Below, piece by piece: positions 255-64,000 of a DNA stretch of 64,000 bases. Every line of letters begins with the position of its first letter. The stretch's first letter is position 1. The position numbers were made by a program, and so were the translations under genes. The notes beneath the pieces were generated by a model. That model made no database searches, was not told where the DNA came from, and saw only the letters and a list, made by a program, of their open reading frames with translations. The DNA is taken from contig OZ024742.1 of the NCBI GenBank assembly GCA_964016885.1, forward strand, positions 121,644,001 through 121,708,000. The letters are read 5' to 3'. Source of the DNA: Eledone cirrhosa. Its lineage: Eukaryota.

Positions 255-531
255 TCAGCCTAGCAATAGCGAGAGAATTAAGTCTTAGTAACCAGATTCT
301 GCTTATATTTCTTTTCTCTCTCAGTACCTTTTACAGTTTTACATGTTCATCGTTCTACTTACCGTTTTGACCTCCTCCCCCTCCCCCTCCCCGGCGTCCT
401 CTTTGACCTCACACCCAGCCGTAGCTGGCACCACCAACGCATGAATGGGTCTACTCCGCCCCTCTCCCCTTTTCTCCTACTGGCAGGTTTGGCTACCTCC
501 CTCACCAACTTGCCATCGCAGAATTACTACT

Positions 532-3500
532 AAGAGGGTATAAAGTCTAAGTATATGCAGTTTGTCAGTTGGTAGTAAGAGGTTAAGTGTTCGATTTGTA
601 GTGCGAACATTTCTCTTTGAGTCTATGGTTACAATAAATTGATCTCTCAATTTTATTGTTGAGTAACCTATTCTTCGAACTTAAGATGTGGAACAGCTCA
701 ACGTTGCATACTCGACAGCTTCTCATACCACTCCGATATGGGGCGCGTTTGATAATTTTTTCCACTCAGGGTGTATTGATGGTTACTTTCCCTCAGTTGC
801 CAGGTCTTGTTTGCAAGGGTAGTTACATAACGGTGCTGGGAATGTTTCATTGCGTAACGGTGTGTATACCAACGAGCTTTAAAAGTATTCCAAGTCGCTC
901 CGATGTAATACCATTTCTGGTTGTCTGATTCCACTGTGCATTGGTAAACCAGGTTAGACTGCATACATTCATTTTGTAATGGACAAGTTTCAGGTAGGTG
1001 GCAGTTGCATTTCTTGTTATGGGCAACGTTGGCATTATTTGTGGGCTGCGATGCCTGAACAAGTGTGTTACGTTTTGTTTGTCTATTAGCGGGTGGTTGT
1101 GTATTAGATATTCTGTTGTGTTCGGTGGTAATTGTATTGTTATTGTTGTAAATTTGTGTTTTGCTGTTGTTATGTATCTTTTTAGCGTTAAGCATCTTAA
1201 TGTGTGCTTCTATATTTGGTGCCGTGGAGTAGGATAGTCTAATAGATTTAGTGTTAAGGATTTTTCTGTATCTATGTGAATCCGGAAAGTGCCTATTTAT
1301 TATTCTAAAGAAAGTAGAGGGTAGGTTAGTACTAATAGAGATGTTAAATATGGGGTTATACCAAATATATTTTCTACTGCGTGACTTGTTTGATTTCGAT
1401 GTTGTACTTCTATTTGCCGTATACTTTGCGGTTCTATGCGTAAATGTGTGTATGCGTGTGTTTCTGGAGTTTGTGTTATGCGTGTTCGTGTGTGCTTCAC
1501 AGAGGCTTTCATCTATATATTCTACTCTATCTAAGTGGCCTGCCTTGTCTAATGCGGTATTGTAGTATTCTGCATGTTCTTCGAAGATTTGCCGGTTAGA
1601 TCAGAGGCGGGAGATCCTAAGGGATATGCTGCATGGAATGGATTTAATTATTGATAGTGGGTGGTTTGAGTTACAGTTGATGTATGCTAAGTTTTCATTA
1701 ATCTTGTGAAAAGGTCTTATAAGTCCCGTATTTAGGTTAAGCGTCACATCTAGAAAGTTAACTGTTTTAGTGCTATACTCGTACGTTATGCTAAGGTCTA
1801 GTTTTCCGAGAGTCTTTCTAATATTCTTACGGAGTCTTTCTATGCTCTGGTTATTTAGGTTCTTAACTAGGAGAATGGCGTCGTCTCTGTAGATTACACC
1901 GTGAAGGTCGCTAAACTCGCTTTGTAAACTATGGGCTATGTAAATACCTACTAAGTCTGTGACTTGAGCCGAGTCGTTAGCCCCCATCGTGATGTCAAAG
2001 TTATTTAATCTATCCTTGCGTTCCCAATAGGCGTTTTCGAATTTAATTATTGTTTTCCTAGCAGCTAGTATGATTTTTATCTCGTCGTCTGTTATGTCAG
2101 AATTGGCTTTGGCGAATGCTAAGGCTTTATCTAAGGTGTTGGGGGATATAGATGAGTAATAATCGTTAATGTCAAATTGTATAAATTTAGATACTTCCTT
2201 GTTTGCTATATTGTTAAACCATTTAATTGTTTCGGTAGCGTTACCCCATAGTTTAATCACTAGTTTATTCTTCATTTGTGCTATCACTCTGTCTAATATA
2301 TGTTTACTAATTTTCCCGATGTCCGATTTGGATGGGCATATAAGTCTAATAGTCGGGTTATAATCAAAATTTACCTTGTGGTCCTTGAGGTTAAATGTGG
2401 GGGTACATGGCTTAAGTGGCTCCGTTCTGTCGTCTATTCCTAGGTGTTTGACTATATTGTGTGCCTCGTTGTTGATGTTTATCAGTGCCGCCTCATTTGT
2501 TTTTTTGTATTTCCTATGTAATTCTTTCCGTATGAAGCTATTGTATGTATTAACATCCATCGTATACACATTTGATGTTTTGTCCGCTTTGACAATAATT
2601 CCATTGGTGGTACGCAGCTTTTTTATGAATGTATTTATGTCATTCTGGAGTTTATTATTCCTCCGCTTTTTGAATTTGATATTCATAATCATCTTCAGTA
2701 AGTCCTGTTCAAAGGCATCCAGTTGAGGGTTGGTAGTGGGTTTTTACACGATTTGAAGCCGTATGTTTCCTTGTTATATTCCACGGTGCGACCATTACGT
2801 CCTTTGTCGAAATGGAAAGTTTTCCATCTAACTCTGCGTATAAAGTCGTTTGTTCGCTGTATCATCCCGAGAGTATAATCCTTTCTCCGAGGTATAGGAA
2901 TGTTCTTTAGGGACATACCTATGTAATGCTTTTCCATAGTAGTACCGTATGTTTAGGTGGTTGCTCGACCGATAAGGAGCCTGTAGTTAGAGAAGCAAAA
3001 AATTGCTTATTGTAATCCAGTTTTTGGTTAAGAAAGCCAGTTTCATGGATGGTTTCAACGTACGGTTAGGGGTAACTCCACAAGTTTGTAAGAATTCCGT
3101 TCAATCTTGGAGTATATGTATAAAAGAGAAAACACAGGTAAGCAATGAAACATTCCCAGCACCGTTATGTAACTACCCTTGCAAACAAGACCTGGCAACT
3201 GAGGGAAAGTAACCATCAATACACCCTGAAGTGGAAAAAATTATCAAACGCGCCCCATATCGGAGTGGTATGAGAAGCTGTCGATTATGCAACCTTGAGC
3301 TGTTCCACATCTTAAGTTCGAAGAATAGGTTACTCAACAATAAAATTGAGAGATCAATTTATTGTAACCATAGACTCAAAGAGAAATGTTTGCACTACAA
3401 ATCGAACACTTAACCTCTTACTACCAACTGACAAACTGCATATACTTAGACTTTATACCCTCTTATATCTAGACCCTTTAATTACCCACAAAACCAATAC

Positions 3501-4764: not shown

Positions 4765-4833
<69 letters not shown>

Positions 4834-4869
4834 GAAAATAAAAGTTACGGGCGAAAGAGAGTAATATCC

Positions 4870-4927
4870 ATCGTCAATTGTCTGCTAGGAATCATAGGTA
4901 TTTCTTCGCGTTAGAGACAAGATACCT
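4870..4927 (-). ncRNA. Putative non-circularly permuted hammerhead ribozyme (C3U variant core)
   Basis: Minus strand: AGGTA-TC-TTGTCT-..A-GAAA-TACCT-..-AGACAA-TTGACGA-T. Confidence 0.5.
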
Positions 4928-5457
4928 TAGCCTAGGGCGAACAATAACTAAAATAAGTTATTGGGATAAAAAAAGGGGGGAGAGAGAGAAAGAACTTGTA
5001 AACAGACATGTAGGGTGAAGCAACATAACGAGAGGATAAATATCAAGTCAACAACTCGTTTCGAACATAAGATCTGGCGAGTTTGACGAGAGAAAAAAGA
5101 CACGTCTTCACTGTAGCAGTGTGACTGAGAGAAGAGACTGCTTACAGTGGCAGACGAGGGAGGAAGTGAGCTAGCTGAGAGAGGGTGACTAGCAGAGAGG
5201 GTGTGAGTGAAAGTAAGAGGAAGCGAGAAAGAGATAGTTATAGTGGCAAGCGAGCCGAGAGAAGGTGACTAGCAGAGGTGGTGAGCGAAAGTAAGAGGGA
5301 GAAGGAGAGAGAATGGGAGAGGGAGGATAGCAACAAGAGGAGAGGAAAGAGACGGGTCACAGCGGAGAAGGAAACTTATATGAATAAAATGGCGAGCTGT
5401 GTGGTTGTAATTAAGTATAATGAAAATAAAAGTTACGGGCGAAAGAGGGTAATATTC

Positions 5458-5515
5458 ATCGTCAGTTGTCTGTTAGGAATCATAGGTATTTCTTCACGCT
5501 AGAGACAAGATACCT
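5458..5515 (-). ncRNA. Putative non-circularly permuted hammerhead ribozyme
   Basis: Minus strand: AGGTA-TC-TTGTCT-..A-GAAA-TACCT-..-AGACAA-CTGACGA-T. Confidence 0.65.
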
Positions 5516-6129
5516 CAGCTCAGGGTAAACAATAACTAAAATAAGTTATTGGGATAAAAAAAAAGCGGGGAGAGAGAGGAAAATATATATATATATAAAT
5601 ATATATAAAATTAAAATATAGAGTCAGAAACTCACAATAGTCCCCTATGATAAGGGAGCTCAAAGAAGAGAGACCGAACTCTTTATAAATCATAGCTATG
5701 AGCAATGAGAGAAGGCACATAATAAATTATGTCAGATAATAGAGGATAAAGTACCACCCTGGTAAAGTACATAAAAATTACGGATGGAGCGGTAAATACA
5801 AATTGATAAAATAATAATTAAAGTGTACGAACATCCACTAAAACGACATACACCAGTACATAGGATATACGCTATATACATATATATTGGCATAATATAT
5901 ACAACACACACACACACATACACACACACACGCACACACACACACACATATATATATACTACAAAACTATAACTGTCTCATTCGTAAGAAATCATGATGG
6001 CTTTTTACGAATGGAACAGTTCTAGTCCAGTAGAAGTAGTTTCTATAATAAAATAAAGATGCTTGTACTCTATTAACGTATTCAGTACATTTCTAAACTG
6101 TATTTGCCTCCGATATTCATCGGAAATTC

Positions 6130-7201: not shown

Positions 7202-7262
7202 TATTTTATCTGATGAGAGCGTACCAAAGTTTTGGTACCCTTGAAATATATATAATAGAATA
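7202..7262 (+). ncRNA. Type I hammerhead ribozyme
   Basis: TATTTTAT-CTGATGA-GAG.GTACCAAA/TTTGGTAC.CTT-GAAA-TATATA-TA-ATAGAATA. Confidence 0.85.
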
Positions 7263-13901: not shown

Positions 13902-15231
13902 CATACACATATACATACACGTACAAATACACATACATATACATATACATACATACACACAAATATATCAACATATCCATACATACACATACACACAAAT
14001 ACACAAACACACATACATGTATATATATATATATGGATAAGTATTTTAGACTTTATTTTATCATGAGTTAAGGCTCTATTGATTTTTCCCTGGATTTCAC
14101 TAAATTCTGTGGATGAATTTATATCCTGATTCTCTTTTGAGATGAGTTTGAATTATTTTTCCTACATGTTACGTTAACTATTTTTCCCATCTTGACGACA
14201 TAGTCGCATATATGTTATGGAATACTGTTAGCTTCTCGCTAAAACAATTTCTATACCTTTCATTTATATATATATATACATACATACACATAATCATACA
14301 TATATACACACGTACATACAGACACATACATAAACACATATATACACGCATACATACGCATACACAAATATAGATATATGTACACACACCTACATACGCA
14401 CACACACAATTAATTATAAGAAAAGATATAATAATAAAAATACCGTCTCATAAGAATAAAAATAAATGTAAAAATTATTATAAAGTTGACAGCGATACAA
14501 GCAACAAATAAATGAACAAACACACGTGGTAAGCAATACACACAATTGCACATACACATACATAAAAATAAATACATACACACACACACACATATACACA
14601 TACATATACATATACACATACATACACATATACATATATACACACACATACACACACACACATATATATATATACATACACATATATATACATACATATA
14701 CATACACACATACATATAAATACATACACACACATGTATGTGTGTAAAATTCATTCGCAGATGTATTCATTGAACCTTGTTTAACTCTTAAATATATACA
14801 TATATATATACATACATATATATATATATATATGTAGAAGTTATATTTAATATGTATATATACATACATATACACACACACATATATATACGAAAATACA
14901 TAAAAATTATATATATAAATATAAAAAGGTGAAAGGAGTAAACAAATAGTTGGGAATACGACAAATAATAAATAAATAAATAATTAGAAAAGGGTATAAA
15001 TGTTTATAGCTGATTTAGAGCACTCAACAAGTTCCTGGAGCAAATGGTCAATGAAAATAAGCATTAAATCACTGTATGTAATTATGCATATACATACACA
15101 TACATATATACATATACATATATATATATATATACATACACACACACACACTCACACAACCATACAATTACACACATATATACATACATATACATACATA
15201 TACGTATATATATATACATATAGGAAAAAGT

Positions 15232-15726
15232 ATGATCCCGACGGCAGAGCTCAAGCCGTTTCTGAGGGTAGGTTTTGCTGGAACCACCATAAAATCATCC
15301 CTGATCATCAAAACCTACCCTTTTAAGAAAACCCACTGTACTAATAGGAAATGTATCATATATAAGGTAAACCCCCGAATAAACTGTAAAACTAGAAACG
15401 TAGTTTATAGCATAAGATGTACAGAGGGTACTTGCAGAAACATGACAACAACATACATAGGCGAGACAGCTCGTAGCATCGGTGAAAGGATAGACCAACA
15501 CTGGGGGGAAATAAAAGGACGAAAAAACGTGTCAGTACTATACGAACATGCCAGACAACAACACAACGGTAACATAGACAACATAGAAATTAGAATAATA
15601 TCTAAACATAAAAATGACTCAGCAGATAGGCAAATCAGAGAGGCCAGTGAAATAGAACTTAGAAGGCCAAGGCTAAACAGAAAGAATGAATGGAATAACA
15701 ACAACACCCAAACAACACTGACCTAA
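15232..15726 (+). pseudogene. 5'-truncated PLE GIY-YIG endonuclease domain (open frame)
   Basis: C..C..C-KTRNVVYSIRC..C..YIGETARSIGERIDQH..LYEH..H..RQIREASEI..PRLNRK. Confidence 0.88.
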
Positions 15727-15999: not shown

Positions 16000-16041
16000 A
16001 CCACTGACGATGTTGCAGATGTGCAACGAAAGAACTTTGAT
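16000..16041 (+). ncRNA. Minimal, probably decayed hammerhead in PLE 3' UTR
   Basis: CTGACGA-TGTTGCA/TGCAAC-GAAAG; stem I imperfect. Confidence 0.45.
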
Positions 16042-21392: not shown

Positions 21393-21795
<403 letters not shown>

Positions 21796-39694: not shown

Positions 39695-41597
39695 ATTTCT
39701 ATGCAAAAACAGAGGATGTAACAAAAAAATAACAATGAAAAATTCCCCAATACGGGGGAGACTTCCGAGGGACATTCGTGGAGTAAATCCATTAAAAAGC
39801 CACAGTGACCCTGACCACCAGAGCAAGTGCCCTCTCCCAGTTTTCCACCTTTAATTTACAGTCTCATACTCAGAGTAGGCCCATTCACTCGGGCCATTCT
39901 TGCCTCTCTCACCCATCTTTCAACAAAATGCTGGGAAGAGAGCACTTCCCTCTCTACCCTGATTTTCCTTTTCAAATGAAATTTGAAAAAGTTAATCAGG
40001 GCATCACCGAAGAGGTAAGTGCTCGTCTTCAGCCCTTTCAAACGTGTCCACCATACTATCTCTTTCGCCATGGCCACCAGAGAGATAAAAACTGCCTGCC
40101 CTTCCCGGCTAAAGGAAGAGGGCGGGGCAATCCTCACGATGGACTCAGCTGATAGCTGGATCCGTGCTACACGCGACAGCAGGTGTTCGACATAAACCCA
40201 CAAGTCAGCAATGCTCGGACACTGGGCGAGTGCGTGCAGGACGGTTTCGTCGCCCTGCGCGCATCTCGGACATGCGCGGCTGACGGCACCTCCATGCCTG
40301 TAGAGTTTATCCCGAACTGGCAAAGCTCCTCGCTAGCACTGCCAGGCCAGGGATTTCTGGAAGTTGTCCATAGGCCCCGGCCCGAAAGTCCTTCCAAAGA
40401 GATTGGCTAGTTGATTTTCGTCGACGCCTAGAGTTTTCCCAAGTACGTCGTCGCTCTTTCCCTCCACTAATCCTTTATAGAACACCAAGGTGGAGTTTCC
40501 ACCGATCACATTGCCCGATTGGTCGAGGGCTGTGAGCGCCTGAAGATATTCCAGTCTCCAAGCGCTCCCTCTCGGTCTTTGCTTGACCCAGGACTACAGC
40601 TGGGGAAAGACTTGTCTAGCAAACGGCGACCACACCTGATCGAGGAAGAGGTGGAGATGTCGTAGCCTGAGCGCGTGTCTGCGCATCATCAGCCACGGCA
40701 TGCCCAGCCCTCCACGTAGCGGGTGTTGACAGCAGATGGACCGCCTGACTATCGGAGCGCGTTCCTTCCACAAAAAGTGAAAGAGCAAACGCTCCAGCGC
40801 AGTCAGGCGAGGTTTAGAACAAGGCACGACGGTCAGGCGGTAGTAGATGACGGATGCGATATACGCGTTAGCCACCTCCGCTCGACCTTTCAGGGATAGC
40901 TTCCTCTCCGCCCATTTCTGGGTGAGAGAAGCCACCCTGCTCGTCACCTCGTCCCAGTTTTTGTCCGTCAGGAGGTCCGGACCGAACCAGACCCCTAGCA
41001 ATTTAACCGATCCGTCTGTCCAGCGCCCGACGACGTTGTTGGATGGAATGGACCTGCCTCTCCAGGTGCCGAGCTGCAGGCTCACTGACTTTTCCTGGTT
41101 GATCATTGCTCCTGTCACCGCTTCGTATTCTCTTAGTGTAGTGCCGATCGCCTCGATGTGTTTGGCGTTCGACACCACTACGGTGACATCGTCCGCATAT
41201 GCTGACACGGATCTTCCGCATCCTAGTTCGCGCGGGATCCCCCCCCCCCAACGTCTCCAGTTTGTGCAGTAATGGCTCGAGAGTCAATACGTACAAGAGG
41301 GACGAGAGGGGACATCCTTGGCGGACCGAGCGCATGATGTTGAACGGTTCCGAAAGGTGACTGTTCACTCTCACCACAGAGCAGATGTCGCTGTGCATGG
41401 CAGGGATCCAGCCTCTGAAGACGCGCCCAAAGACAGCCGCCCTCAGGACTGCCGCTAGGCAACGATGGTCGACCCTATCGAAAGCTTTCGACTGATCTAA
41501 ATTGATCAAGGATCCACCCGTGCCAGGTTCCCTAGCTACCCTCTCCACGATGTATCGGATGAGGTGGAGGTTGTCGTGGATGGATCTGTCGGGAATG
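39695..41597 (-). mobile_element. 5'-truncated L1/Tx1-like LINE ORF2 (RT + C-terminal zinc finger), frameshifted
   Basis: IPDRSIHDNL, LDQSKAFDRVDH, VRQGCPLS, AYADD, CPRC..ETVLHALAQC. Confidence 0.92.
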
Positions 41598-41624
41598 ATA
41601 ATAATAGTAATAATAATCCACCCA

Positions 41625-41842
41625 GGGCGGTGGTTTGGCAGTATCGTTAGAGCGTCGGTCACCATGCTTAGTGGTATAGTGTTACGGCCCTTTACGTTCT
41701 GATTTCAAATCCCACTGAGGTTAGCTTTGCCTGTCATCCTTACGCGGTCAATAAAATAAAGTACCAGTAATGCACTGGGTCGATTCAATCAACTTTCCAC
41801 CTCCTTCAAATTGCCGACCTTGTGCCTAATGTAGAAACAATT
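41625..41842 (+). mobile_element. tRNA-derived SINE
   Basis: Full head, core and tail followed by (TTA)n. Confidence 0.88.
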
Positions 41843-43619: not shown

Positions 43620-44762
43620 AATCGGTACAGTATATGGAAGGAATATATTAGGTTAACGCTTCAAATAGCAGGAAGAAGGTCTTAACGTTTCGGATGCTAG
43701 TCCTTCATCAGAAGAAATAATGAGAAATAAGATAGATTGAGGGGATGGGCGGATTGGAATTGGAAAAAAATGTCTTTAGATAAAAAAAATATATATATAT
43801 AAAAGGCAAAGAGAAATCACAAAGCAAACGACACATTACAATGAAATAATTATTACTTTTACGCTTGATATAGTTGTGTCTACGCATGCGTGTGCGTGCC
43901 TGCATCTCCCTATCTGTGTATGCGTTTTTGTGTTTGTCATGTCTATGTGTGTTTTATGTGTGTGTGTGGAAATTTGTATCGTTTGCTGTTTGCTGTTTGT
44001 CTTTTTCCCCTCTATTCTGTCGTCAGTCGTTAAGTTGCGAGCTGTTTCTATTCCACTCGTTTTTTTTTGTTCTGGCTAGGACTGTCTTTTATTATGTGTG
44101 TGGCCTTCTATTATGTCTGACTTTTGCGTCAGTTCTATGTGTGGAAAGGATCTTCCTTTCTACATTATCTATTGGGCCCCGTGTCCTAATTTGTCATGTT
44201 GATATAGCACTGATGAGCTTTTTTCCTCCTTAAATTCTCGCCAGCGTTCCTTTAATTTCTCTCCTATACTACGGACTGTCTCTCCTATGTATGTCGTCTT
44301 ATTTCTGCATTGTCCCTTTGTACATCTTATCCTATAGACTACATTTCTAGTTTTACTGTTTATCTGTGGGTTTATCCTATAGACAATACAGTTTCTATCA
44401 GTACAGGGGTTTTTCCTAACGGGGTACGTCCTACTTATCCGGGATTTTATGGTAGCTCCTGGTATTTCTACTACTTTAATCCTAAGGTTCATTTTGTCTA
44501 AAACTCTTCTAAAACGATACACTAGTTTGCTTCTAGGGGTAGCATCGACGAACATGACACTCTGGTAGTTTTAGCTGTCATACCCTGAGTTGGCCTTCCC
44601 TATCATTTTCTTAGTCCTTTCTATGCTATTCCATGATTTGCTCCTGTATACTGGGCAAATCCCATTCTTATAATTCTCCATAATGGTTTTGAATTTAGCC
44701 ATGGCTCCTTTGTACACGCTGATCCTATCGCTTTGGTTATCACTAGAGAACTTATTAATCAA
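43620..44762 (-). mobile_element. 5'-truncated PLE: decayed thumb/GIY-YIG region plus 3' UTR; same family as 15232-15726
   Basis: KTRNVVYRIRC..YIGETVRSIGE; clear similarity to the 15232 ORF. Confidence 0.85.
43680..43715 (-). ncRNA. Minimal hammerhead in PLE 3' UTR
   Basis: TCTT-CTGATGA-AGGA..TCC-GAAACGTT-AAGA; palindromic AACGTT. Confidence 0.75.
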
Positions 44763-47264: not shown

Positions 47265-47513
<249 letters not shown>

Positions 47514-47627
47514 GTATGTCTCCTTCTTCCTCACTTTCTGTTGCCTCACCATTTTGTTTGTTTACCCTCGCGTCCCCTTTATTTAGTGTCCCAACGACTT
47601 TTTTTAGCCGTTGCTCGTACCAACCGG

Positions 47628-47685
47628 AGGTATATGGTCTTTAAAGCGATGAAATGCCTATGATAGTTGGAAGATCACTGATGAA
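47628..47685 (+). ncRNA. Putative non-circularly permuted hammerhead ribozyme
   Basis: AGGTA-TA-TGGTCTT-..T-GAAA-TGCCT-..-AAGATCA-CTGATGA-A. Confidence 0.65.
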
Positions 47686-48237
47686 GGACAAACTTTTTTC
47701 ATATGTAACCCATTTGCAACTCTGCAACGCCCTTATTATCATATTTACACTATTTTTTCCTCTGCTGCTACACCGTCTTTTTCGTTCTATGTATCTTTAC
47801 CCTTTCTAGCAGTCTCACTCTCTGTTAGCCTCTTCCTCACCTCACCCTTCACTCACTCCTTCTCTGTCACTACCTCTCCTCCTCCTCTTTCTTCCTGTTT
47901 GACCTGTGAGTAACTCTTTTCTCTCACATTCTCGGCCAAGCTGGTCGGAATTTTTTCTCTCTCGTCTACGATTTCACAGAACTTATGTTTACCGAATTCG
48001 CAGACCAGACCCCTTCTTCCTCCCGTTAGACCTGTGCGAAATTCCTTCCTTGCTCACATTTCAACCAGGTTTGATGGTCTTTATTCACGATTTCACCGAA
48101 CTTAAATTCATAGAAATCTGGGACTTGTCGCCTTCTTCCTCACTTTCTGTTGCCTCACCATTTTGTTTGTTTACCCTCGCGTCCCCTTTATTTACGTGTC
48201 CCAACGACTTTTTTTAGCCGTTGCTCGCACCAACCGG

Positions 48238-48295
48238 AGGTATATGGTCTTTAAAGCGATGAAATGCCTATGATAGTTGGAAGATCACTGATGAA
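48238..48295 (+). ncRNA. Putative non-circularly permuted hammerhead ribozyme (second copy)
   Basis: Identical to 47628-47685. Confidence 0.65.
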
Positions 48296-48347
48296 GGACA
48301 AACTTTTTTCATATGTAACCCATTTGCAACTCTGCAGCGCCCTTATT

Positions 48348-48416
<69 letters not shown>

Positions 48417-48469
48417 CAGGAAAGAAGGTTGACATGGTTTGCTATACAAAAAAGGTTTTTAATCTCATA

Positions 48470-48575
48470 GCTGACAATTGTTTCTCTGAACTGGTAGGTC
48501 TAGAGATCGCTATTCGCTTATTTTCACGTTACTCGATCGCCAATACAAAATTATAACCAGTCAGATCTTCGGAGC
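48470..48575 (-). ncRNA. Type I hammerhead, U4C core variant (inverted copy)
   Basis: GCT-CCGAAGA-TCTGACTGGT..ACCAGTTCAGA-GAAA-CAATTG-TC-AGC. Confidence 0.65.
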
Positions 48576-48922
48576 ATGCGACTAAATTCATAAGATTCAA
48601 ACCTCCGTGAATCGAACCAACACAACATAGCTTTAAATTAGGATACCTACTACCCTCAGAAATTTATTCATTAAGTATACTATATCCTTCACAAGTCTAT
48701 ACCACACAAATGTCTGTAAGTACCTCATCAACCCAAAACTTATTCCTTCTCAGCTGCTGCCATCATTTGATCCTAAATCCTAGTTTTTCTCAAATCACTA
48801 CTACAATGTAACTTTACCTTCCTTTTGCCATAATTACAATTAGCACGCTTATCTCTTTGCATGTATGTATATTTTTGTACGAGTGTATATTGATGTGTAT
48901 GTATGTGTCTATGTACACATGC

Positions 48923-49014
<92 letters not shown>

Positions 49015-49391
49015 ATATGCGTATATTACTTCGTTAACCTCTGTATTAACTCAACAACTATTTAGCTTTGACAGTGTTGTCCCACTCATGTATGCTATCG
49101 AAGATGAAAAGAAAGACTGTAAACACTGGCCTATCTTTATAATTTAAAATTGATACACACTTCGATACTCTGTACATGCCAAACTCTTACTTTTGCCTCA
49201 TGACAGCTAGTTTTACACGCCGTAATGTTAGATACATTATACCCCCACCTAAGTAATGTCAGGGTCTCCTCAAATAATTTATTAATAGCATTGTTGTAAT
49301 TGTTGTTATTGTTCTAATTGAATGCCATTACTACTTCATATAGTAGCCTGTATATTCTTTTCTTGCCTGTGTATTCTCTTCATTCTCGCAT

Positions 49392-49497
49392 GCTCCGAAG
49401 ATCTGACTGGTTATAATTTTGTATTGGCGATCGAGTAACGTGAAAATAAGCGAACAGCGATCTCTAGACCTACCAGTTCAGAGAAACAATTGTCAGC
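49392..49497 (+). ncRNA. Type I hammerhead, U4C core variant
   Basis: GCT-CCGAAGA-TCTGACTGGT..ACCAGTTCAGA-GAAA-CAATTG-TC-AGC. Confidence 0.65.
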
Positions 49498-49723
49498 TAT
49501 GAGATTAAAAACCTTTTTTGTATAGCAAACCATGTCAACCTTCTTTCCTGATTTATTATTACTCCAAGTGTTTACAACATAGGAATTACGGCATACCCGC
49601 AGCATCACTATGAAAACGCCTTGTTGAGTCAAACCAAGCCAAGCGTTAATATCATCCACTACCTGGAATACCATAACTGGACTATACCTAAGTGGACTGC
49701 ATTTAACTATTATTTGTTACCCC

Positions 49724-62610: not shown

Positions 62611-62839
62611 ATCTAGCTGTCGTCTGTTCTACAGTGTGGATGTCATTCACTTCGCACAGAAGTTTTGTTCAAATTTATTGAGGAAATTTTGTGAGTTCAA
62701 ACTTAATTTTGATACAATTGTGTAGCTTGACCCTCCGTCTGAACTGTCAGGCGGTGGGTCAGCTCATCTTTACCCCTCCTAGAGGTGAAAAACCTGTTTT
62801 AAAAAATTTTGTGTAAAAAATTTCAATCGTCTAACAGAA

Positions 62840-64000
62840 ATGTTAAACGCAGCGAACGAAAATAGTGGTGGGGGGACAGCGGTAAGAGTTGTAAGCTCGC
62901 ACGCTTTAGTCCCCCCTTCCTTCCCAACTAACGTCATAGAGAAGGAAGGAAAAATTAAAATAAAAACAGACGAATCTGCGGAAAAAAAAAAAAAAAATGA
63001 CGAAAACACAAATCTGGACTTGGATTCCAATAACGAAAAAAAAAAATTTGAAAAATTGCATGACAATACTAATAACACAAACAAAGACACAACAAACACA
63101 AAAATAACATTTGAAAATAACACCATATCAGAAAACAAAGCAGACGACGAGATTTCATTTGCACAGAAAACACAGAAATCTTTGACTTATATAGCGGAAA
63201 ACATTTCAGATGTGGTACGAAGGATCACGGACGCCAAACAATACATAAGTGAAGGAGAGAATGGTATTTTATCGGTAAAAATGCCTCAAGAATTCACGAA
63301 AGACATTGAAAGCCGAACGGTCAAGTTTCGGACCATCAACAACAGTACAAAAAAACCTGAACAGCCTTCTCAAGCAGATATCAAAACAGTACTCACAGAA
63401 GTACTTAATGAAACCACTTTCATAAGAAAAGACAGACTGTATGGAAGCCTAGCAATTATCATGAAGAACGAATCGGCGGCAAAAAAATGTGCTTTGTCAC
63501 CGATTCGTTCGAAAAATTTCACCTTTTATCCATCTTATATGGGGAAAAGAACTCAACGCATATGGCTGGATGCAATGATGCCAGATGTGGACTACTGCTG
63601 GCTCATAGCTGGCTTCATCGATCCAGTGAATGACAACGTGATTTCCATTGGGAAAACCACAGGCAATGCGTTCAGTGGAACAGGTATAGAGCTGGTAGTA
63701 CAAATGAAGCCTGAACGCATCGCCCAAATACCCGACAGAATCCTATTAGAGGACCACGGGTATATAAACATTAGCGTGGAGGGGAGAAGGCCGTCCTGCC
63801 ACATCTGTGCAGGCAGAGGGCACCTGAAGGCCGCTTGTCCCCAACTCAACAAAAAGAAAACCCTGCTACCAACACCAGCTCCACCACCACCAACACAACA
63901 GATAAACAAACAACAAAACTCAGTCCCACCCAACCCGTCCCTCAGTAAAACCACAACACCACCACAACACAAACAGTCACAACACATTACCCCAAAACAA
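62840..64000 (+). CDS. LINE (L1/Tx1-like) ORF1 gag-like protein with CCHC zinc knuckle; runs off the window end
   Basis: ATG at 62840 is in frame with VEGRRPSCHICAGRGHLKAAC at ~63776-63838; no stop in the segments I translated; absent from the ORF track, presumably because it has no stop within the window. Confidence 0.8.
   Translation, partial: MLNAANENSGGGTAVRVVSSHALVPPSFPTNVIEKEGKIKIKTDESAEKKKKNDENTNLDLDSNNEKKKFEKLHDNTNNTNKDTTNTKITFENNTISENKADDEISFAQKTQKSLTYIAENISDVVRRITDAKQYISEGENGILSVKMPQEFTKDIESRTVKFRTINNSTKKPEQPSQADIKTVLTEVLNETTFIRKDRLYGSLAIIMKNESAAKKCALSPIRSKNFTFYPSYMGKRTQRIWLDAMMPDVDYCWLIAGFIDPVNDNVISIGKTTGNAFSGTGIELVVQMKPERIAQIPDRILLEDHGYINISVEGRRPSCHICAGRGHLKAACPQLNKKKTLLPTPAPPPPTQQINKQQNSVPPNPSLSKTTTPPQHKQSQHITPKQ

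Follow-up and report, generated by a model that had tools for sequence, protein, structure and literature searches.

A young, non-coding retrozyme-like family with a predicted permuted hammerhead ribozyme in the genome of Eledone cirrhosa

The element at the centre of this study, found in a window of 64,000 nucleotides of Eledone cirrhosa DNA, belongs to a real PLE-mobilised, retrozyme-like family, whose copy number, unit length, covarying fold, PLE-type ends and copying across the predicted cleavage site can be read directly from its genomic copies. With a slight preference over other readings, we take the window element to be an insertion of a young tandem retroelement that would have been copied in trans by a PLE RT from a ligated unit-length circle.

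The insertion terminates at the long fixed 3′ end of the family (+113), and a second, minus-strand element lies elsewhere in the window (Table 1). A generic scan for S-G-C cores recovered exactly four sites in the window, whereas 10 shuffles of one strand yielded no site at all, and the spacing of the cleavage sites came out as originally predicted, with H17 at 47634 and 48244 on the plus strand (610 nt) and at 5509 and 4921 on the minus strand (588 nt; the core at 4921 carries a C3-to-U change). Other features of the original prediction held as well: both units are rich in pyrimidines (67% and 70%), TA runs contain or border both element ends, a Pfam search with the 10 stop-free frames of at least 55 aa gave no match, and the spacer motif has a counterpart in the second element that aligns over 37 nt at 76% identity (E 0.005, low-complexity filter off). 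A tblastn comparison of five PLE protein pieces with 11 units likewise gave no match to PLE coding sequence. The repeat-spacer-repeat architecture that had been proposed stands only in part: the repeat is duplicated (47517-47747 and 48126-48357, 232 nt, 97.8% identical), but since, in the 30 best genomic copies, the end of another unit is always found upstream of the first cut, the insertion represents 1.4 turns of a tandem, i.e., a 5′-truncated partial tandem of one unit, and not an LTR-spacer-LTR arrangement.

Table 1. Coordinates of the insertion, its predicted ribozymes and the second element within the window.
Feature	Position	Strand	Basis or remark
Target tract, (TA)n then (TATG)n, at 5′-truncated end	47269..47516	.	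sequence
Insertion, ~1.4 tandem units	47517..48357	+	5′ truncation 118 nt ahead of first cut
Predicted hammerhead 1, S-G-C order	47615..47685	+	covariation
Predicted unit, cut to cut	47635..48244	+	610 nt, non-coding, 67% pyrimidine, 43% GC
Old internal direct repeat	47889..48141	+	period ~128 nt, 67% identity
Spacer motif common to both window elements	47951..47989	+	
Predicted hammerhead 2, cut after 48244	48225..48295	+	
"Tail", from the short fixed 3′ end of the family (+73) to the long one (+113)	48317..48357	+	
(TA)n target tract at 3′ end	48353..48413	.	
Second element, older subfamily B	4830..5582	-	588-nt unit, ends in (TA)n

Several other features share the window. To the right of the element lies a MITE-like inverted repeat of 171 nt (99%; 48411-48581 and 49386-49556), with a related copy near 21421-21710; a broken LINE-type reverse transcriptase occupies a 53% GC patch at 39859-41704 (minus strand); and an open frame of at least 404 aa without a Pfam match, perhaps a host exon, runs off the window at 62789-64000 (plus strand). 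Microsatellites dominated the repeat search over the whole window.

In the predicted hammerhead 1, the conserved blocks follow the order cut site (cut after 47634), GAAA (47651-54) and CUGAUGA (47678-84). Stem III is formed by 47629-33/47654-58, stem I by 47635-40/47672-77 and stem II by the single pair 47650/47685, while an upstream strand (47615-18) pairs with 47646-49, a further helix joins 47620-24 to 47666-70, and kink-turn-like G.A pairs fall at 47627-28/47662-63. Across 45 selected variants, which span the sequence clusters with at most three per cluster and with truncated rows dropped, 96% of the cells of this 21-pair fold are paired and changes on both sides occur at 13 pairs. None of 500 shuffles reached its score, in a test that is blind to relatedness and concerns a fold derived from the 45 sequences themselves, and slid controls were 30-48% paired. 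Covariation is strong in stem I (6 bp, both-side changes at five of the six pairs) and in the helix -15..-11/+32..+36; stem III is 98% paired, with both-side changes at one of its five pairs. The first pair of stem II is present in 41 of the 45 variants, while pairing at the three positions that follow is seen in 1, 1 and 3 of them; the strand ahead of GAAA pairs instead with the upstream strand at -20..-17 (95%). A kink-turn consists of a 3-nt bulge followed by tandem G.A and A.G pairs between two helices, and the extended stem III loop fits this in all four bases in 37 of the 45 variants, as a fit of sequence only. Members of 27 sequence clusters retain the catalytic core, which is partly owed to the search pattern.

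Block order and covariation contradict a canonical hammerhead of type I, II or III, and these readings were rejected. A helix search found no 3′-side helix of at least 4 bp with the linker between stems III and I, which pairs upstream. The Rfam scan of the window returned no hammerhead, only low-complexity matches of microRNA type, none of which reached the gathering score. Pseudoknot-free folding, whose model is uninformative here, places the ribozyme regions no better than shuffles (z -0.5 to +0.5); circular folding of the units gave z of -2.1 and -3.8 against 25 shuffles each. As a negative control, pattern matches listed from metagenomes (at least 117 stretches) and from viral contigs (14) were inspected; stem I of at least 4 bp forms in 2 of these 131, and we set them aside as chance matches and not relatives. 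We consider it probable that the predicted ribozyme cuts.

The core pattern has 12,290 exact matches in the 3.0-Gb Eledone cirrhosa genome, against none for the reversed control. Of 61 same-strand ribozyme spacings, some of which stem from overlapping loci counted twice, 50 fall at 493-679 nt and resolve by subfamily into units of 493-497, 502-531, 564-590 and 610-637 nt, plus one of 679; the outliers are one spacing of 316 nt and 10 of at least 976 nt, which reflect skipped ribozymes or separate insertions. Subfamily A is young, with a mean difference of 2.24% among 35 units from 25 loci. In one insertion (L020, 1300-1616) two S-G-C subfamilies are joined, likely by an RT template switch. With a looser pattern, 160 older S-G-C-like sites that differ in their stem sequences were collected (control 15); they represent several decayed families with the same ribozyme (L293-L322 among them). 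Contigs of two runs cover the unit and are uninformative on RNA ends or circles.

The units do not contain the RT plus GIY-YIG ORF of an autonomous PLE and are thus non-autonomous, and an RT-coding element bearing the identical repeat was sought in the genome and not found. The 30 best genomic copies, selected by length and by similarity to the window element, all have another unit's end upstream of the first cut; a coding body occurs there in none of them. Random breakpoints in the tails of a coding element, named at the outset as the outcome that would speak against a family, are therefore not what the copies display: unit length is kept and no coding body precedes the units.

The mode of insertion was followed in 71 stretches around the first 100 matches listed on contig C1, with one duplicate dropped. 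Here, the 5′ extents of the copies vary at random from 0 to 741 nt, and a TA/CA run begins 60-139 nt after the cut at 87 of 93 terminal ribozymes. The 5′ side of 89 elements abuts a microsatellite in 41 cases, an inverted sister copy in 27, other DNA in 18 and an inverted PLE piece in 3. Head-to-head pairs combine one short and one long arm in 12 of 13 cases, with ends 28-50 nt apart. The copies thus display what is typical of PLE insertions, namely 5′ truncation, partial tandems, an adjacent inverted copy (27 of 89 sampled) and two closely spaced 3′ ends (30-40 nt apart in PLEs), the so-called tail. The tail was described by Craig et al. (PMC8557442, as far as its accessible text goes) and has been attributed to a pair of internal sites, 3′ of the hammerhead, at which the RT starts (PMC11167929); the short and long end pairs of the family resemble both. 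We regard mobilisation by PLEs as very probable. By comparison, truncated 3′ tails of a coding element, or satellites arising at the DNA level, with no role for a unit-length RNA, are a highly improbable explanation: random 5′ ends are compatible with it, and the two identical units of locus L002 would fit a later DNA duplication, but the copies are dispersed with fixed 3′ ends and paired short and long arms, which argues against either form of it, as does the run of 30 loci without a coding body. Accordingly, the predicted non-autonomous retroelement family is retained, being non-coding, high in copy number and conserved in length, with PLE hallmarks in trans; what falls is the linear monomer as its usual template.

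Copying starts ~70-130 nt downstream of the predicted cut, so a linear cut monomer would yield copies of at most ~70-130 nt that terminate at +1. Selection on +12..+43 only gave 4,109 matches; of the first 100, judged by eye, 94 cross the cut; of the remaining six, three break between +4 and +12 and three rows, at two loci, stop within ~4 nt of the cut, a number of stops not above chance (P ~0.24). As copying begins just 3′ of the cut and nearly all copies cross it, a linear cut monomer is rarely the template; the linear 610-nt RNA cannot be the usual one, and a circle or an uncut precursor remain. One of the two loci with stops at the cut (C1:29085127-29085212, G000) is an inverted pair with both arms starting at the predicted cut, perhaps a rare trace of cut RNA.

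Two units of the same array have on average 2.83 variants in common and two units of different loci 0.35 (12 and 583 pairs), a difference reached in none of 5000 permutations and expected if one template is copied repeatedly, although DNA-level duplication or tandem donors fit such sharing too. It is also partial: of the 140 variants that array units carry, only 59 recur in a sister unit, 5 of 18 units find their nearest neighbour within their own locus, and the units of L022 share no variant. By analogy with other animal retrozymes, which form circles in vivo (PMC7229834, in its accessible part), and given the arrays of 3-5 ribozymes, we lean slightly towards a ligated circle as the main template. 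An uncut read-through transcript of tandem copies, used by the same family and the same PLE enzyme, is a credible but less favoured template, with a ribozyme that would be slow, protein-gated or later-acting and a unit-length RNA that would be a by-product. Such RNA is what a Poseidon PLE mainly uses in vitro, where ribozyme mutants had no effect on insertion (PMC11167929), and Xenopus retrozyme dimers were cleaved in one of nine cases (bioRxiv 10.64898/2026.07.22.740005, in the part available). Copies that cross the cut fit it equally well, and the partial sharing of variants, together with mixed arrays such as that of L005, where one full unit stands beside three from which about one copy of the ~128-nt internal repeat is deleted, fits donors with unlike units. 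Against this, copies of an uncut donor could not outgrow it, yet arrays of 3-5 ribozymes occur; in 6 of the 8 multi-unit loci, the units have in common a variant seen at no other sampled locus; and both the retention of the catalytic core (in part an effect of the search pattern) and the circles of other animal retrozymes count against it as well.

Under the favoured reading, a tandem copy would be transcribed, both predicted ribozymes (47634, 48244) would cut, and the 610-nt RNA would be ligated into a circle. A PLE endonuclease would then nick (TA)n, and the PLE RT, starting at one of the two internal sites, +73 or +113, would run back over the re-formed ribozyme and round the circle, stopping at random, with copying on one or both sides of the break.

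As to the origin of the ribozyme, there is a likeness with Naiads, PLEs that prefer (TA)n, lack canonical hammerheads and survive in cephalopods only as long inactive remnants, according to the accessible text of Craig et al. (PMC8557442). The ends of Naiad_Obim and Naiad_Ovul, inspected by eye in the part of its supplement that was displayed, appear to have the same S-G-C fold, including both upstream helices. Of 47 Naiad consensus ends viewed in the same way, five are of S-G-C type (two from Octopus, three from coral), six from nematodes are C-S-G and one more is weak, the rest having no hammerhead in the part displayed; two further S-G-C cores were seen among Naiad consensus sequences besides these ends. 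Several bivalve and hemichordate Naiad ends, also by eye and within the displayed part, carry a different conserved motif and no hammerhead core. The layout of the ribozyme likely derives from a Naiad 3′ end. None of the 30 older S-G-C-like sites that were fetched has a recognisable Naiad frame of at least 70 aa within 1.5 kb upstream, by eye.

The exact Naiad RT motif has no match in the genome; a looser one has 13 (12 Naiad-like; control 3). Decay is evident in all 13, and neither a long frame nor an S-G-C core downstream was seen with any of them. A protein search with a Naiad-type RT of one lineage as probe, in which 150 of 172 candidates were scored, gave 127 matches, in which open frames reach 298 aa at most, and no intact Naiad partner emerged for the lineage probed. 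Neptune-like PLEs, by contrast with these decayed Naiad RTs, are young, with 30,105 candidates, frames of up to 828 aa and a best-hit median of 98%; they comprise RT, a C-x4-C-x2-C linker, a C-terminal GIY-YIG and a canonical minimal hammerhead. As all Naiad RT sequences recovered were decayed, we hold a Neptune-like PLE to be a more probable helper than a Naiad and give it an even chance. In line with this, family members join Neptune-like elements head to head with no TA between them at L068, L147 and L092; at L061 the join is made via a mini-element piece. The two or three such joins in the sample exceed a rough chance figure of 0.08-0.53 in 21, which rests on assumed copy numbers. They may still be nested insertions, as a TA-free boundary with unrelated DNA is also seen in 18 of 89 elements, the ends of the Neptune arm are all of one type, and no sequence match of the units to Neptune copies was found. 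Somewhat less probably, the helper is a still-active Naiad that was missed or a PLE of another clade, and the Neptune joins are nested in shared TA targets. The Naiad-like layout of the ribozyme, the presence of Penelope-like and Hydra-like PLE pieces in the genome, and a probe that spans one Naiad lineage with 150 of 172 candidates scored all leave room for this, whereas the state of the 13 motif matches, the lack of any join to Hydra-like or Penelope-like pieces among 31 unexplained 5′ flanks and the excess of Neptune joins weigh against it.

Two further leads were rejected. Ribozyme pairs 2.9 kb apart (L061, L062) suggested an autonomous element, but the PLE ORF there runs on the opposite strand with its own canonical hammerhead, and the GIY-YIG ORF upstream in L068 belongs to a separate Penelope-like copy with its own terminal repeat.

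Other PLE-related elements were encountered along the way. At 531-3465 of the window (minus strand) lies a PLE bounded by inverted ends of 236 nt (99%). Its ORF pieces, 380 and 300 aa long, gave no Pfam match, and it has DKT at the DKG motif, which the accessible text of Craig et al. (PMC8557442) assigns to the Hydra clade. Another element, short and abundant, occurs at 43711 (minus strand) and in L011, L054, L061, L118, L125 and others; it carries a minimal type I hammerhead of canonical form, and its fixed end falls in TA/CA runs. In L061 it continues in line into a truncated Neptune-like ORF and in L011 directly into the 5′ end of an S-G-C element, both possibly by template switch. Candidates in canonical CUGAnGA..GAAA order occur at 7210, 13085, 13206, 16004 and 56297 (plus strand) and 57747 (minus strand), the one at 16004 just after a GIY-YIG ORF piece (15082-15723).

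If these readings are correct, non-circularly permuted hammerheads, so far known from environmental sequence and one weak bacterial case, occur at more than 12,000 sites in an animal genome, with a wiring beyond the six block orders in the accessible part of Eckert et al. (PMC10085705). This would account for type I screens having missed Naiad ribozymes and undercounted retrozymes, and a helper switch between PLE clades would amount to a SINE-like change of partner. An RT start just 3′ of the cut, combined with copies that cross it, turns the role of PLE hammerheads into a question of circle versus uncut RNA. At its widest, the picture would be of a Naiad-born, multiply pseudoknotted hammerhead, with split stem II and kink-turn, that cuts and closes a 600-nt animal circle; this circle would have outlived its parent retrotransposon and switched to a Neptune-like PLE enzyme, and scrambled hammerheads would be the "missing" ribozymes of many Naiads. 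Taken as a whole, we consider this picture unlikely.

Among known systems, plant LTR retrozymes (as described in the available parts of PMC7229834 and bioRxiv 10.64898/2026.07.22.740005) share with the family a ~600-nt unit between two hammerheads, but are built with genuine LTRs, hammerheads of type III and PBS/PPT and leave target duplications of 4 bp, whereas the family has neither LTRs nor a type III hammerhead and shows random 5′ ends, partial tandems and PLE-like ends. Naiads (PMC8557442, accessible text) share (TA)n targets, partial tandems, inverted 5′-truncated copies and the tail; they differ in having an ORF and, in cephalopods, in being long inactive, while the family is non-coding and young (2.2% between copies). 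The type-SGC hammerheads, i.e., HRIMA-1 and variants (Eckert et al., 2023, PMC10085705, in the part accessible), have in common with the family's ribozyme the order of cut site, GAAA and CUGAnGA, the core bases, stems I and III and a short linker between stem I and the G block. Within that part they come from metatranscriptomes only, and their stem II is complete and accompanied by an additional helix on the 3′ side. The ribozyme described here resides in an animal genome, its stem II is a single pair that a strand from 5′ of the cut continues, and its stem III is extended through a kink-turn-like loop; lacking the full stem II, it is a variant of type-SGC and not a member. In the openly accessible literature searched, no publication was found to deal with permuted hammerheads, be it in Naiads or in animal genomes, and the family's ribozyme differs from every described retrozyme ribozyme found in the literature searched. 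The closest parallel in behaviour is with metazoan non-LTR retrozymes (Cervera and de la Pena, 2020, PMC7229834; Li et al., 2026, bioRxiv 10.64898/2026.07.22.740005, both in their accessible parts), which likewise consist of non-coding tandem units with one hammerhead core each, and further share a GC content below 45%, thousands of copies and a proposed dependence on PLEs. Their hammerhead is of type I (C-G-S) and that of the family S-G-C, so that type I screens would miss it; their reported circles of 170-400 nt are shorter than its units. The family therefore works like a metazoan non-LTR retrozyme, yet falls outside that class by the type of its hammerhead.
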